From Stegostoma tigrinum (lineage: Eukaryota), in NCBI RefSeq assembly GCF_030684315.1, contig NC_081378.1:45922307-45986306 (forward strand): DNA of 64,000 nt, written 5' to 3'. Positions 1,654 through 62,814 of the stretch are shown in pieces. The position numbers and the translations under genes are program-made. Below the pieces are notes generated by a model. That model was not told where the DNA came from. It searched no databases and worked only from the letters and a program-made list of their open reading frames with translations. How positions within the stretch are numbered: position 1 is the stretch's first letter; each line of letters opens with the position of its first letter.

Positions 1654-3711
1654 CTATGCAAAATGCAATTTTTAATCAAAACGCTGATGTTATTTGGCCA
1701 AAATCATTGAAACCAAATGCAAGTATCACAACTATTTACATAAATTTGAAAAGAGATATAATTAAATAAGATTTAAGTGGATATTATTGATGCAGTTTTA
1801 AAATTTGGAGATATAATTTTACAGTGACATACACAACTTTAAAATGACACAGAAAACAGCCTCAGGTCAATCTGAGGTCGAGCTAAACACCTAAGTAACA
1901 AGCCTGCAAATCTTCCAGGTCTTTGCTTTAAGGAGTAATCTTAGGGACACAGACCAGTATGGAGCAGTAGTGTTGTAGTTTCCTTGAGGCGTCTCCATAC
2001 AGCCTAGAATTACAAGAGCTGATCTGCAGTGTTCCTATCCGTCCCAGAAGGTGGATAACAATACAAAAGGGCACCTAAGTAGCTGATCATGGGAGGTTAC
2101 CTCCCAAATATTGGAGAATAATCATATCAAGATCAAAAGCAAAGTGGTTTCCTTCTTTCCCTTCAAAACAAGTAAGCCAGGAACAAGTTGATTCTGGAGC
2201 CAACGCTGCAATGCTGTCAGCCAGACCTGTAGCTCCACTCTCTATTTTGCTCCTTTTAGTCAGCTTAGGGTACTGGAAGGGGACGGGCCAGAGGTAAAAC
2301 CATGCAGAGTAATATGCCTAATGCACCAAATTCAGCAATGACTTAATCTGGACAGCTGCAACAGGTTTCAAGTGCACTTAGAGTTAAGGATGGGTTTGAA
2401 GGTCATCTGCTAGGATTTGAGCTGCCAACCTGTATGTATAATCTGTAAATAGACTCCTCTCATCCCCTTCCTTTAAAATAAATTAATTCACTGTCAAATA
2501 GCTGTGTATCATTATCCAATTCCAAAATAAATAGTGATCCAGATAATCCATAAGATTAATATATCCACAAAAATTATTTTGCCAAAACACAATCCTTCCG
2601 TAATGATATTACCCACTGTGTGCGCAAATACACTTGGACATCCTTACAGCCGCTCCAGTATTTCAAAGTCAATTGAGTTACATCACTTCAAATGAGGTCG
2701 GTTCACTCACAATTTTGACTTTTTGTTTTAAGGTGGAGTCTGCCTGAAGCAGAAGAAAGTTTTAAAACTGGACTCTTACAGACTGGGATCTAGAACATCC
2801 TCTCCTCTGCTTCTACTGCTTGAAAAACTCAAAAAGTCCTCCACCTTCTGATGGCACAATCTCTATCAAAGATTCAAAGTCATAAAGCCTCATCTTATGG
2901 CTCCAGGTATTGTGATTAATGGCAGCCACACAGTGACTCATGGCACGACTGAAACCTAGCAATTTCCTGTCAGAGGCTAGGTATCCAGTGGACGATAATC
3001 CTATGCCTTCAAACCTATAATATCTTTGAATACACCTTGTTCTGACAGATTACACTCCCTTCCCTGTACTGCGTCTAAATTGGAAAGTTCAGCAACCTTA
3101 CAGTCCCAATATTGAGGCTCAACTGATGGGATTAGAGAATAGAGTACGGCCTTACTTCCAACTCTGCACCACTGCTTTGCAAAATAACAGCACTATGAGC
3201 ACAGGTTCTATGAATAAGCCCTTTAGGTTGATCAGTCTCAACTGTCTGCATGTCAACTCCTCTCCATTAAACGTAAACCTATGCTGGCATGTTCTATCGT
3301 CAAACCAACCTGGGTAGAAACATTGTGCTGGTGCTCTTCAGAAAAAATTTCAGTACTGAAGCAGCTGAATTCAGCCCTAGAATATAGGACATGAACACCA
3401 AGCATCAACACCTTGAACGGCAAAAACTTCACCAGGTTTAGTCCAATCCCAAAATTTTAGTGAAACTCTCACAAGACAGCACTCACCTGAAACTGCCTCC
3501 ATTCTTGCAAAAGTGACTCCTGAATTACTGGTACACCTTAAAAACCTATAAGAAAATATGCAACCAAGTGAATTCCTAGGGCATAAATACACAGCAATTG
3601 TAAGAAACTCAGAGTTTCCATGGATCCATATTAGAGACTTCACCTTAAGTTTCTGTAAGGTTTTCATCTCAAACATTACCTACTAAACTGGTCTTAAATG
3701 CACTGTGACTG

Positions 3712-43110: not shown

Positions 43111-43821
43111 AATCTTGGGTCAAAATTTTACATGTTTTAAGATGTTTTCAGTAACAAATAAGCTTACAACATTGACCAGACAATACCCAGTGAGCAATGA
43201 ATGCAACAAACTACTAAAAAGGTTCTTTTCCCATTAACCAATTAAAAGAACCAAAAAAAATCTATAGGTAGCTTCCCAACAAAATATTCTCTTCTGATTT
43301 TAGGGAGTTCACGATCACAGTTAATTGCTGTGGATAGTTGTTGACTGTATTATCTAATAGTTTTTTGAGTTTATTAAGAAGTAGCACTTTAGATATGATA
43401 CATTATTTGCTTAGGCAAAGTGTACAACTGTGACAATTGAGGATAGCTCACCGACTCCAGAGGACAAACATGCAGTCGGTACGTAGTGTTTTGGTCTTGA
43501 TAAGTGGTGGGGCGCAGCATCCTGCTCCCTAGGTGAAGTGTTAGAGACCTCTTCCCTCAGCCTTTCTTCACTTCTTCTCGTCCTTCCTCTACCTGCCTGG
43601 TGTAGACAGCTCATTGAAGACTGTGGTCTGAGGATTGCCCCCAATGAGGAATGCATAAAAAAGTCTGCTTGTTGAGAAGTCCCCAAAAAAAGAATTTGCC
43701 TTTTTCCCTGACTACTTATTGTTGTAACATATTTCCAGGGACATGATATTTCCTCCATATCAATTAATTTCCTGAACTCTGTTGGCCAATGTCCATGGGA
43801 CAACTATACTTGATGTCAGAT

Positions 43822-44658
43822 AACAAAGTGTGGAGCTGGATGAACACAGCAGGCCAAGCAGCATCTCAGGAGCACAAAAGCTGACATTTTGGGCCTAGAC
43901 CCTTCATCAGAAAAGGGGGAGGGGGAGAGGTCTCTGAAATAAATAGGGAGGGGGAGGTGGATCGAAGGTGGATAGAGGAGAAGATAGGAGGAGAGGAGAC
44001 AGATGAGTTAAAGGGGCGAGGATGGAGCCAGTACAGATGAGTGAAGGTGGAGAGGTAGGGAGGGGATAGGTCAGTCCGGGGAGGACAGACAGGTTAAGGG
44101 GGCGGGATGAGGTTAGTAGGTAGGAAATGGAGGTGTGGCTTGAAGTGGGAGGTGGGGATAGGTGAGAGCTATCCCCTCCTCCCACCTCAAGCCTCACTCT
44201 CACCTATTCCCTCCTCCCACCTCAAGCCACACTCTCACCTATTCCCTCCTCCCACCTCAAGCCGCACTCTCACCTATTCCCTCCTACCACCTAAAGCTGC
44301 ACCTCCATTTCCTACCTACTAACCTCATTCCACCCCTTTGACCAGTCCATCCTCCCCGGACTGACCTATCCCCTCCCTACCTCCCCACCTACACTCACCT
44401 CTACTGGCTCCATCCCCGCCCCTTTAACTTGTCTGTCTCCTCTCCACTTATCTTCTCCTCTGTCCATCTTCAATCCACCTCCCCCGTCCTTATTTATTTC
44501 AGAACCCTCTCCCACTTCCCCTTTTCTGATGAAGGGTCTAGTCCAGAAACGTCAGCCTTTGTGCTCCTGAGATGCTGCTGGGCCTGCTGTGTTCATCCAG
44601 CTCCACACTTTGTTATCTTGGATTCTCCAGCATCTGCAGTTCCCATTGTCTCTGATAC
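43822..44658. mobile_element. Long inverted-repeat Penelope-derived family A insert
   Basis: Arms of ~340 bp, purine-rich then pyrimidine-rich; internal 35-bp repeat x3; ACTTGATG(T/C)CAGAT at 43808 and 44659. Confidence 0.8.
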
Positions 44659-55102: not shown

Positions 55103-55729
55103 TAAGACCATAAGACGTAGGAGTGGAAGTAAGGCCATTCGGCCCATCAAGTCCACTCCGCCATTTAAATCATGGCTGATGGGCATTTCAACTCCACTTC
55201 CCTGCACTCTCCCCGTAGCCCTTGATTCCTTTTGAGATCAAGAATTTGTCGATCTCTGCCTTGAAGGCATCCGACGTCCCGGCCTCCACTGCACTCCATG
55301 GCAATGAATTCCACAAGCCCACCAATCTCTGGCTGAAGAAATGTCGTCTCATTTCAGTTTTAAATTTACCCCTTCTAATTTTAAGGCTGTGCCCACGGGT
55401 CCTAGTCTCCCTGCCTAACGGAGACAACTTCCTAGCGTCCACCCCTTCTAAGCCATATGTCATCTTGTAAGTTTCTGTTAGATCTTCCCCCAACCTTCTA
55501 AACTCTAATGAGTACAATCCCAGGATCCTTAGCCGTTCATCATACATTAAACCTACCATCCCAGGGATCATCCGTGTGAATCTCCGCTGGACACGCTCCA
55601 GGGCTAGTATGTCCTTCCTGAGGTGTGGGGCCCAAAATTGGACACAGTATTCTAAATGGGGCCTAACTAGAGCCTTATAAAGCCTCAGAAGCACATCGCT
55701 GCTTTTATATTCCAAACCTCTTGAGATAA
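55103..55729 (-). mobile_element. Young CR1 3' fragment inserted antisense in the older CR1
   Basis: Open frame ISRGLEYKS...RPHLEYCVQFW...FKAEIDKFL; tail gtcttatggtcttat. Confidence 0.85.
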
Positions 55730-56020
55730 ACAACATGAGAGGTGATCTGATTGAAACACACAGGATTCTTAAGGGGCTTGACTGTGTAAACGCTGAGAAG
55801 ATGTTTCCCCTCATAGGGGAGTCTATGGCCAGAAGGTATAATTTTGGAATCAAGGACCATCAATTTAAGACTGGGTTGAGGAGGGATTTCTTCACTCAGT
55901 GGGTTGAGTCCTAGCAATCCCTTGCCACAGAGAGCTGTGGGGGTGGAGTCCTGATGTATATTTAAGGCTGATTCTTGATCAGTTGAGAATGCAAGGGCAG
56001 GAAAGTGATCCTGAGGAATG

Positions 56021-57137
56021 GAGAGAGATAATGGGAACTGCAGATGCTGGAGATTCCAAGATAATAAAATGTGAGGCTGGATGAACACAGCAGGCCAAGC
56101 AGCATCTCAGGAGCACAAAAGCTGACGTTTCGGGCCTAGACCCTTCATCAGAGAGGGGGATGGGGGGAGGGAACTGGGAGCTTTTGTGCTCCTGAGATGC
56201 TGCTTGGCCTGCTGTGTTCATCCAGCCTCACATTTTATTATCTTGGAATCTCCAGCATCTGCAGTTCCCATTATCTCTGATACTATTTTAACCTCACTGC
56301 GAAGCCTCTTCCAGGGATGCCTAACCTGAAGAAGTTACCCTCCTCCCTCCGGACCAACCTCAGGGAATCTCTCTCCCATTGGCTCTCCATCTTCGGTCCG
56401 CCTCCCCCTCTCTCCCTATTTATTCCAGTTCCCTCCCCCCATCCCCCTCTCTGATGAAGGGTCTAGGCCCGAAACGTCAGCTTTTGTGCTCCTGAGATGC
56501 TGCTTGGCCTGCTGTGTTCATCCAGCCTCACATTTTATTATCTTGGAATCTCCAGCATCTGCAGTTCCCATTATCTCTGATACTATTTTAACCTCACTGC
56601 GAAGCCTCTTCCAGGGATGCCTAACCTGAAGAAGTTACCCTCCTCCCTCCGGACCAACCTCAGGGAATCTCTCTCCCATTGGCTCTCCATCTTCGGTCCG
56701 CCTCCCCCTCTCTCCCTATTTATTCCAGTTCCCTCCCCCCATCCCCCTCTCTGATGAAGGGTCTAGGCCCGAAACGTCAGCTTTTGTGCTCCTGAGATGC
56801 TGCTTGGCCTGCTGTGTTCATCCAGCCTCACATTTTATTATCTTGGAATCTCCAGCATCTGCAGTTCCCATTATCTCTGATACTATTTTAACCTCACTGC
56901 GAAGCCTCTTCCAGGGATGCCTAACCTGAAGAAGTTACCCTCCTCCCTCCGGACCAACCTCAGGGAATCTCTCTCCCATTGGCTCTCCATCTTCGGTCCG
57001 CCTCCCCCTCTCTCCCTATTTATTCCAGTTCCCTCCCCCCATCCCCCTCTCTGATGAAGGGTCTAGGCCCGAAACGTCAGCTTTTGTGCTCCTGAGATGC
57101 TGCTTGGCCTGCTGTGTTCATCCAGCCTCACATTTTA
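56021..57137 (+). mobile_element. Penelope-derived hammerhead-containing tandem element (retrozyme-like)
   Basis: Inverted segment 56021-56178, then 3.2 identical 300-bp units; TGATCCTGAGGAATG duplicated at 56006 and 57138. Confidence 0.8.
56449..56480 (+). ncRNA. Minimal type I hammerhead ribozyme motif, unit 1; identical at 56749 and 57049, antisense copy at 56122-56153
   Basis: ct-CTGATGA-A-gggt(ctag)gccc-GAAAC-GTC-ag. Confidence 0.6.
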
Positions 57138-57399
57138 TGATCCTGAGGAATGTCAGATCAGCAATGGTCCTACTGAATGGTGGAGCAGGTCAGAGAAGCC
57201 AAACAGCCTTCTTCTGTTCCTATTTCTTACAGTCTTATGATTCTGCACCATTGTCAATTTTGTTTTCTCTCTCTCTTTCCAGTGGGCTTGCACTCTCTGT
57301 TCTTGCTGTCTCTGCTGCTGGAGATACCTGGCACTGACAGCATCCCTCTCTGAGCAGACTGGTTAGAAAATATCTTTGAAGTTGAGGATTGCAGTGCTG

Positions 57400-58243: not shown

Positions 58244-59040
58244 GTAAGTGAACTCTGAATTGAACTGCTCTCTTTACAATACGGCTCCCAGTCAGATCCA
58301 TGGTCTGTACAGTAATTGTTTCTCAAATACTTGTTTCAACTCGTTTTAAACCTTTGCGTTTTGCTTATACCTCATTTCTAAACAAAGGACAGGCGAGTGC
58401 AGAAACAAGCTGGTGACAATCCACAGATAATGCCTGCCCTGCTGAGTTTTCCCAGCATTTCCAACACCCGCATTTCTTTCGTTATAAGAAAACGCTGATA
58501 AAGAGCCGTACTGAATTCGAGGCGCTAACTGCTTTTCTCCCCCCTCTCTCCCTACCGATGCTGCCAGATCTGCCGAGTTTCTCCAGCGCTTTCCGTTTTC
58601 TGTTTGTGATAAGCTAAATGAGAGCTGGAACCGTATCATTTTAATGGCTGCCCAGAGATTGCAGAATTCTTATGTCTCATGGATTATTATTATTTATCAT
58701 ATCAATCACTAATATCAGTTTTGTATTACTATTGCATAACTGTGTACATAAATCACAAGGGTTTAAAACTAATTGTTTTGGTGTTTTTTTTAAATTCAAT
58801 AATAGCATCTGAAGTAACTAGAATAGCAGTTCCCACGATAAACTGATGGATTGAAATGATGCTGATAGAAGCTTTCCATAATGTTGACTTCTATCCTTCC
58901 ATTCGTTAATATGCAATAAATCCTTACTGACTTCTCAAAATAAACTATTTCAGGCCTGTTTAGTTTTATACCATGTGGAGGGCAAATGGAATGCCCCCTC
59001 AACTTACAAAACACTGACCGAGCTTGAGGAGAACTGAGTT

Positions 59041-59231
59041 TACAAAGTGTGGAGCTGGACGAACACAGCAGGCCAAGCAGCATCTCAGGAGCACAAAAGC
59101 TGACGTTTCAGGGGTCTAGGCGTGAAAAAAACAGCTTTTGTGCTCCTAAGATGCTGCTTGGCCTGCTGTGTTCATCCAGCTCCACACTTTGTTATCTTGG
59201 ATTCTCCAGCATCTGCAGTTCCCATTATCTC
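59041..59231. repeat. Palindromic family A insert in SPX intron 3
   Basis: Inverted arms; GGAGAACTGAGTT at 59028 and 59232. Confidence 0.8.
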
Positions 59232-59719
59232 GGAGAACTGAGTTAACTGGGTTTGGACGGTCCGGGAAGCCGAGAGGCACAATTTAAAACCCATTTGCTC
59301 CGCTCTTGCCTGAATACAGCTGGAGACCGTGGGGGTTAAAATTTTCCCATTTCCAATGAACCATGTGGGCTCGAAACGTTAGTTTGAGCCCTCTCCACGG
59401 ATGCTGTCTAACCCGCTGTGAAGAAGGGTCTCGGCCCGAAACGTCAACTTCCCTGCTCCTCTGATACTGCGTGGCCTGCGGTGTTCAGCCAGCTCCGTGT
59501 TATCTGTGATTTACAACGTATTTCTTTTCTTTGCTTTCAGTTCAGATTCCAGTATCTGCAGTAACTTGCTCCTAAACTCACGGTTAGCAGAACATTTCAC
59601 AAGTCACAGAATGAAAGGCTGCCGGTAAAATGTACAAAGTCAAAACGGGCAGGATTATGAGACTTCTACACGTTTGAGAAAATAGTATTTCAAATATCCC
59701 TTCACAATTCTCATTACAG

Positions 59720-61750: not shown

Positions 61751-62594
61751 TCTCCTGTTGCATGTTCATCACAAACAAGAACTAAACTTGACATTTTCCT
61801 GGTTAGTAAGTCAGGCATGACACCAATCACTCACTGAGACATTAGGAAATTTGTACACAATTACATAATTAAAAGACCACATGGTAGGGTTTGAGAGAGA
61901 GCAGGGGAGTGCTGTTATGTCACACCAGCTCAGCAAAGTACATTAACTGCTTATGGATGTCATTTGCTGTTTTGTGGGTCCTTCTCATATAGTCATTGGC
62001 TGCTTCACTTTCCTCCCAAAATATTGATGGACTTCAACATTCATTCATTGGTTGTGAGCTGGTTTGGGACAGAGGGGTGTTACATCAATTCAAATTCATT
62101 TATGGTCATCCTTGATTTAGAAAATCTGAAGTCTGTCTGACCTGAAGGTGGGTTGTCAAGTAGCACCAGTGAACTGCTTAAGAGTCAGTATGAGGCACAT
62201 TTATACTCCTTGGTAGGTTAGTTGCCTTCTTTGTGTCTGCTGCCAAATAAATTGCAAGATGCGGGAATAGTTCTAAAGGAGTGAAGCATCTGCACATGTT
62301 ACATTTTAGTTCAAAATTGTTCAGCTATTTTATGATGTCACTGAAACAGGTGGGATTTGAACTCATGGCTCCTGGCCCAGATATGGGGTGTGTTACCTCT
62401 TCAGCACAACAGGTCTCACCACAAACCTTACATTTTCAAAACTTTAACCTATTTTTCTAATCAACCTGTTCAGATGTGTTCTGACAAGCCTCAAGAGCAG
62501 CTGGGATTTAAACCTGGCACTCCCAGGCCAGGTACTGACGCTACCACTGCATGACAAAAGTCTCCTCTGCAAACCTGAAACACTTGTTTAAAGA

Positions 62595-62814
62595 GATAAT
62601 GGGAACTGCAGATGCTGGAGAATCCAAGATAACAAAGTGGGGAGCTGGATGAACACAGCAGGCCCAGCAGCATCTCAGGAGTACAAAAGCTGACGTTTCG
62701 GGCCTAGACCCTTCATCAGAGCTCGGGGGTCTAGGCCCGAAACGTCAGCTTTTGTGCTCCTGAGATGCTGCTGGGCCTGCTGTGTTCATCCAGCCTCACA
62801 TTTTATTATCTTAT
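62595..62814. repeat. Palindromic family A insert in SPX intron 5 with a hammerhead motif on the minus strand
   Basis: gagct-CTGATGA-A-gggtctaggccc-GAAAC-GTC-agctt (62687-62724, minus); ACACTTGTTTAAAGA at 62580 and 62815. Confidence 0.8.

Follow-up and report, generated by a model that had tools for sequence, protein, structure and literature searches.

The array and its target site

The window analysed here is a stretch of 64,000 nucleotides from Stegostoma tigrinum (NC_081378.1, positions 45,922,307 to 45,986,306). Between positions 56006 and 57152 it holds a tandem array of a 300-bp unit, preceded by an inverted partial copy and enclosed by a single target-site duplication (TSD). The unit is described below in the numbering of a longer parent Penelope-like element (PLE), which starts at the base after the hammerhead GUC.

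56006-56020, plus strand: left copy of the TSD, 15 bp, identical to 57138-57152 and present as a single copy in the contigs from runs X1 and X2 that lack the array
56021-56177, minus strand: inverted short arm, parent 3475-3528 followed by 1-100, terminating at the long ("tail") end, with three extra bases at 56021-56023
56124-56151, minus strand: hammerhead core of the inverted arm, predicted cut after GUC
56178, plus strand: untemplated G between the arms, matched by neither
56179-56478, plus strand: unit 1, parent 1-203, G, parent 3433-3528; its first base directly follows the predicted hammerhead cut (GUC)
56479-56778, plus strand: unit 2, same sequence as unit 1
56779-57078, plus strand: unit 3, same sequence as unit 1
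57079-57137, plus strand: partial unit 4, terminating at the short end, unit position ~60-64
56317-56381, and again at +300 and +600, plus strand: first 21 codons of the parent PLE open reading frame (ORF), with the N-terminal residues of the L070 frame
56381-56383, 56681-56683 and 56981-56983, plus strand: join of parent 203 (ORF start) to parent 3433 (3' end); its central base, G in this array, is A at the majority of sister loci
56451-56478, 56751-56778 and 57051-57078, plus strand: minimal type I hammerhead core, predicted cut after GUC
57138-57152, plus strand: right copy of the TSD, identical to 56006-56020

Self-comparison of the window gives a periodicity of exactly 300 bp from 56179 to 57138. 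Units 1-3 are 300 bp each with a pairwise identity of 100%, and the total of 3.2 units is the count in the assembly, no array-spanning contig being among the matches listed. The inverted arm is 100% complementary over 154 nt (56024-56177). An initial annotation, made from the sequence letters, had described the 300-bp period, hammerhead cores at 56451, 56751 and 57051, the inverted partial copy at the left end and one 15-bp TSD around the whole array. All of these are confirmed, and the inverted arm adds a minus-strand core, whose pattern match spans 56126-56151. The same annotation saw no real ORF; that holds for the array, yet each unit retains the 21 parent codons from an ATG at unit position 139.

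Contigs of 351 nt from runs X1 and X2, two other samples under the same organism label and from one study, fuse 55753-56005 directly to 57138-57235. Because these contigs carry one TSD copy, an empty allele exists and the insertion is polymorphic, and the empty site in two other samples indicates that the insertion is young. The array is almost certainly a real, young, non-autonomous mini-Penelope multimer.

A parent Penelope-like element in the same genome

Locus L070 contains a 3,528-bp unit that is bounded by the pseudo-LTR (pLTR) of the window unit and encloses RT and GIY-YIG regions. The window unit aligns with this parent in two blocks of 99-100% identity, bridged over a 3.2-kb gap, and is composed of the pLTR with its hammerhead and the ORF start of the parent. 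The Pfam matches at L070 are weak (GIY-YIG, E=7.5e-4; RVT_1, E=0.026) and fall under the curated cut-offs, and in the parent copies examined the ORF is frameshifted and in pieces. The L070 translation has a CX4CxxC linker before the GIY-YIG region. A CX2-5CxxC linker upstream of GIY-YIG, a mark of the Neptune clade, is described as missing from Penelope/Poseidon (PMC8557442), and Nematis also has a linker; for the putative parent protein, the motif points to Neptune rather than Poseidon.

Judged by the origin of its pLTR and termini, the window unit is a non-autonomous derivative of an EN+ PLE. The insertion also has the anatomy of a PLE insertion, with an inverted arm, a tail at one end (ends at 100 and ~60-64) and a TSD of 15 bp. 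Searched genome-wide, a mid-unit motif matches 5,826 times and a motif of the 3' block 33,261 times.

A predicted minimal hammerhead and a possible footprint of its cut site

The pattern CTGATGA..GAAACG occurs eight times in the 64-kb window, against 0.07 expected by chance. Rfam returned no hammerhead match in the window at E<=5, only miRNA-like matches on inverted repeats. On folding, helix I comes to some 2 bp, in line with the caveat of the initial annotation, and the hammerhead is absent from the minimum free energy (MFE) fold. Helix III is self-complementary; two copies could pair with each other through it, at some -3 kcal/mol. The predicted circular monomer, with an MFE of -52.6 against a shuffle mean of -57.7 (z=+1.1), is no more stable than shuffled sequences. 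The motif has the conserved core, the unpaired base before helix II, the G-C closing pair, the palindromic 15.2-16.2 and the short helix I of the minimal PLE hammerhead (Cervera & de la Pena 2014), the type described in PMC4209133, and its form in the window is the commonest among 178 fetched copies.

The window's long arm begins at the base after GUC (56179), preceded by the untemplated G at 56178; this end point is easier to reconcile with a cleaved, linear RNA than with a closed circle. Among 271 anchored copies at the fetched loci, six end at the cut site and two one base earlier, with fewer than one per neighbouring position. Across the genome, equally degenerate patterns find 3,158 copies whose first base directly follows GUC. 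The positions three bases before and after this one give 251 and 638 starts, respectively, the 638 being inflated by indel variants. The first 100 listed cut-site matches comprise 65 that are palindromic, 10 with a shared 3-nt microhomology and 25 that are neither; scaled from those 25, about 790 clean cut-site starts stand against 251. A perfect palindrome whose centre is the 4 nt following the cut is present at 727 loci. The corresponding number for an equal palindrome of 4 nt immediately upstream, a control that contains a mutable CpG, is 39. At L082, L083 (via four A), L198, L203 and L205, an ORF-start 3' end is fused directly with the cut site.

The concentration of copy ends directly behind GUC hints that the predicted hammerhead cuts in vivo. 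The cleavage proposed in the initial annotation thus gains support of a genomic kind, from the copy starts and the palindromes. For the anole PLE, the available text of the report states that none of the RNA reads stop at the hammerhead cut, unlike the genomic copy ends that pile up there in this genome, and that the hammerhead is dispensable for insertion in vitro (PMC11167929). Among frog retrozyme dimers, eight of nine failed to cleave (bioRxiv 2026.07.22.740005).

ORF-start 3' ends at L082, L083, L178, L198, L203 and L205 meet the cut site or a point just upstream of the core, in two cases through short A runs, and these joins hint at RNA-end joining. At L182:1495-1510, a copy lacks the two bases immediately preceding the cut, as though its site were trimmed and crossed.

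Sister loci and a continuum of joins

The 34-mer spanning the junction of the window unit has three exact matches genome-wide, all in the window array. Allowing one mismatch gives 52 further matches, many of them 300 or 301 apart, and the join is found to within one base at 27 loci including the window, with L057 and L058 representing versions of one insertion. Distinct TSDs of 10-16 bp flank 18 of the 27, which indicates mobility; scans of the other nine found no TSD of 10-16 bp. The outcome for the initial annotation, which expected the junction at independent loci and held that a junction unique to this locus would mean local duplication, is therefore divided. The exact junction is indeed confined to the window, but the one-mismatch search overturns the local reading and places multimers at many independent loci with TSDs of their own. 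The window's G at the join is absent from the short-read contigs among the matches listed.

A sample taken without regard to structure, the first 66 listed matches of the mid-unit motif on contig C1, yielded 60 loci. Minis account for 42 of these, 11 continue into the long ORF and seven are of other kinds. About 41 different joins occur among the 42 minis. The join could be extracted automatically in 34 of the 42, where it is repeated in 14 and present in both inverted arms in 11.

The window's join is found on three pLTR haplotypes, all of them also seen among parent-type copies, and a variant common to all units of L037 also occurs in the long parents L070 and L152. The same join on three parent haplotypes looks recurrent rather than like the mark of one family. 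These sequence patterns favour the repeated formation of minis from parent RNA. Three-part joins at L075, L153 and L170 suggest that some minis are copied again, and small mini families with their own source copies may exist, with classes of up to about 15 by our own estimate from 60 of several thousand loci. The discrete, uncharacterised retrozyme family proposed in the initial annotation gives way to a different picture, in which the unit is a fragment of a co-resident autonomous PLE and belongs to a continuum of minis whose joins are nearly private to each locus. The window array is one among thousands of such minis.

Three candidate sources for these features were considered and rejected. 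A transcription start at parent 3432, which would make the join a closure of cap to 3' end, is unsupported, solo ends showing no enrichment there (351 versus 490 at a control position, the latter inflated by indel variants). Splicing or back-splicing finds no GT-AG at the join on either strand. RNA editing is likewise an unsupported origin for the variants present in all units, of which only 2 of about 9 are A-to-G. The right break points cluster in a CT-rich tract, and microhomology can account for the clustering. At L150 and L151 (G000:C1, ~19.04 and 19.09 Mb), which are separated by 50 kb, one and the same mini lies in opposite orientations; a segmental duplication is the probable cause.

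Paired ends of two-armed insertions

Two-armed insertions were drawn from the mapped loci on the basis of identity of at least 94% at both ends and one strand switch. All 54 pair one end at 58-71 with the other at 82-114, with no like-with-like pairing, and 47 of the 54 have a TSD of at least 10 bp. The window array obeys the same short/long rule, with its ends at 100 and ~60-64. It shares its general form with EN+ PLEs, for which partially tandem pLTRs, an inverted arm with a truncated 5' end and a tail of 30-40 bp at one end only have been described (PMC8557442, PMC3846280). The Poseidon PLE of the anole offers a further likeness, in that both strands of the target are nicked and two internal RT start sites lie downstream of the hammerhead (Frangieh et al. 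2024, PMC11167929), as seen in vitro there and as read from genome sequence alone here. From the pairing in 54 of 54 insertions together with those in vitro start sites and nicks, we infer that two cDNAs are primed from two nicks.

At five of the 27 join-bearing loci (L033, L046, L048, L050 and L051) the second arm is of parent type. A parent-type second arm needs either two templates or a chimeric source such as L058.

The window itself contains other insertions of this kind. An older two-armed insertion of the same PLE lies at 59028-59244, with ends at ~58-65 and 99 and its own duplication of ~13 bp; both of its arms end near the hammerhead cut site. Further two-armed insertions of the same PLE family, at 43818-44658 and 62592-62812, also pair short and long ends. 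Elsewhere, L147/L050 (G000:C20, ~16.011-16.015 Mb) consists of a 300-bp mini arm and a nearly full-length parent arm, which suggests two RNA templates in one insertion.

Probable repeated copying and later change

Sequence variants are common to all covering units in the window array and at L036, L037 and L039, and to both arms at L045 and L053. Variants of these two kinds imply that one template sequence was copied repeatedly. L140 (G000:C4:124484000-124490500) is a 3.6-kb insertion of a 302-bp unit with 11 joins in one arm and an inverted arm; its 10 full units differ by one substitution, and its join has a 6-nt microhomology.

Variants occur in only part of the array at L034, L043 and L141, and L057 and L058 are short and long forms of one insertion. 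The partly shared variants and the difference in length mean that arrays do change after insertion. The older arrays L044, L058 and L143 carry mostly unit-private changes. Among arms of at least 300 nt, the median is 487 for minis (n=64) and 905 for parents (n=26), in samples that are biased; mini arms are thus shorter than parent arms, a difference that an endless template would not lead one to expect.

A model for the array and its alternatives

It seems likely, on the evidence of the sequence, that the array was written in one recent event by the parent RT/endonuclease cycling around a short RNA that forms recurrently. Two elements of the initial annotation, a single insertion event and the involvement of Penelope machinery, are supported. 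In the proposed sequence of steps, parent transcripts would yield short templates again and again, instead of one master retrozyme doing so by descent. The parent enzyme would nick both target strands 15 bp apart, and two cDNAs would be primed at two internal start sites, at unit positions ~64 and ~100. One cDNA would halt after 154 nt and become the inverted arm. The other would make three rounds on a 300-nt template, either circular or linear with re-entry from end to end, and would run off at the hammerhead-cut 5' end before the two cDNAs are joined. A closed circle and a linear piece re-entered end to end are indistinguishable from the DNA.

More tentatively, and perhaps somewhat against the odds, the same observations could be read as retrozymes being born in real time. 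An active PLE would shed RNAs that span the pLTR and close at variable ends, sometimes onto the cut 5' end, before rolling into multimers. The pile-up at GUC would then be a fossil record of in vivo cleavage, and the end pairing would reflect a complex of two enzymes with two start sites.

A classic retrozyme lineage, the model of the initial annotation, would explain the array differently. A copy with one join between two hammerheads would be transcribed, cut twice, ligated at the cut site and propagated in its own right, with the G supplied by the source or the RNA, along the lines of the model proposed in PMC7229834 and PMC4209133. The presence of the join at 26 other loci is in keeping with such a lineage, as are the depths of the join-spanning short-read contigs, ~40-55x that of the unique flank by our own ratio, and the three-part joins with their suggestion of re-copying. 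The haplotype and join counts speak against it, since one join sits on three parent haplotypes and 42 minis have about 41 joins; the hammerhead is minimal, the circle folds no better than shuffles and a source with the G join is absent from this assembly. Descent from a self-propagating lineage is accordingly considered unlikely. The read-through transcript of a tandem source could instead have undergone cleavage at the 5'-most hammerhead alone and a single round of copying, involving neither circle nor re-entry. This would account for a long arm that terminates exactly at the cut site; L058, where parent sequence is followed by three mini units, and the alternating variant at L043, which fits the copy of an uneven source, agree with it as well. 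It requires, however, an unseen source for every private multimer, including the G join found only at the window, leaves the origin of the first multimer of each join unexplained and sits poorly with the 11 near-identical joins of L140, and it is thus rather improbable.

The two remaining explanations place the amplification outside the insertion event. Unequal crossing-over between the two pLTR copies of a single inserted mini could have enlarged it afterwards, a form of local amplification discussed by Li et al. (bioRxiv 2026.07.22.740005) and one to which the partly shared variants at L034 and L141 and the length difference between L057 and L058 would lend themselves. The window site is still polymorphic, which leaves little time for expansion, joins in both inverted arms (11 of 34) are impossible by unequal crossing-over, and unit-private changes dominate the older arrays, so that later DNA duplication is very unlikely as the origin of this array. 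That the assembly inflated a single unit might be supposed from the 100% identity of the units and the missing array-spanning contig among the matches listed. The clean TSD, the typical PLE ends and the many sister arrays with unit-private changes make this scarcely credible. Writing by the parent machinery around a short recurrent RNA thus remains the preferred reading.

Relation to known elements

The window array resembles the metazoan non-LTR retrozymes, which have tandem units of about 300 nt with one type I hammerhead each, a TSD of more than 4 bp and no protein, and for which mobilization by PLEs through circular RNA has been proposed (PMC7229834). Its units fall within the tandem 150-450 bp range, lack an ORF and are flanked by a TSD longer than 4 bp, as in the retrozymes of Cervera & de la Pena (2020). 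The metazoan retrozymes are described as having canonical hammerheads, GC below 50% and highly self-paired circles (PMC7229834). The PLE-derived window unit differs from these in lacking the normal helix I and loop contacts of the canonical hammerhead (helix I is ~2 bp), in its GC of 52% and the poor self-pairing of its predicted circle (z=+1.1), and in matching a parent in the same genome, of which it is a fragment, at 99-100% identity.

Vertebrate non-LTR retrozymes have been presented as PLE derivatives by Li, Clavereau & Pollet (bioRxiv 10.64898/2026.07.22.740005), who find such elements, on average 363 bp long, in the single Chondrichthyes genome of their set, and pLTR homology in Xenopus. 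PLE-derived retrozymes, also in a chondrichthyan, are therefore already reported. Their definition calls for at least two consecutive units, a complete canonical or minimal hammerhead and a motif MFE below -5 kcal/mol. The hammerhead core is intact in all three units, and the window array would likely be caught by this broad definition; the supplements of that study may list the window family or a relative. Its main text, as available, is without join spectra, TSDs, inverted arms, end pairing or a cut-site pile-up.

Putatively non-autonomous, multicopy head-to-tail PLE copies have been noted in Chlamys (PMC8557442, PMC3846280). The present work goes beyond the reports on EN+ PLEs in quantifying the tail rule (54/54) and in finding that minis outnumber long copies (42 versus 11 of 60 ORF-start loci). 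The minis keep the ORF start, which contains a protein-binding region in the Anolis Poseidon (PMC11167929). A literature search, conducted outside Repbase, Dfam and most subscription papers, found no report of a cut-site pile-up of PLE copy ends, of a join continuum or of the window family.

The literature, in the texts available, leaves open the role of the minimal hammerhead in Penelope elements, the origin of tandem and inverted insertions and the birth of animal retrozymes. The window locus links these three questions through one parent, a defined 300-nt substrate, a polymorphic site and signatures that can be counted genome-wide, and each of the three thereby becomes testable. The interest lies mostly in the family-wide signatures, not in the window array alone.

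Surroundings of the array

The array itself is probably without host function. Its target, at 55720-56020 and 57138-57230, appears to resemble the 3' end of an older repeat of LINE/SINE type. Between 57500 and 60000 the observed/expected CpG ratio is 0.6-0.8, compared with ~0.2-0.35 in the preceding kilobases, and a possible promoter would thus lie ~400 bp from the array.
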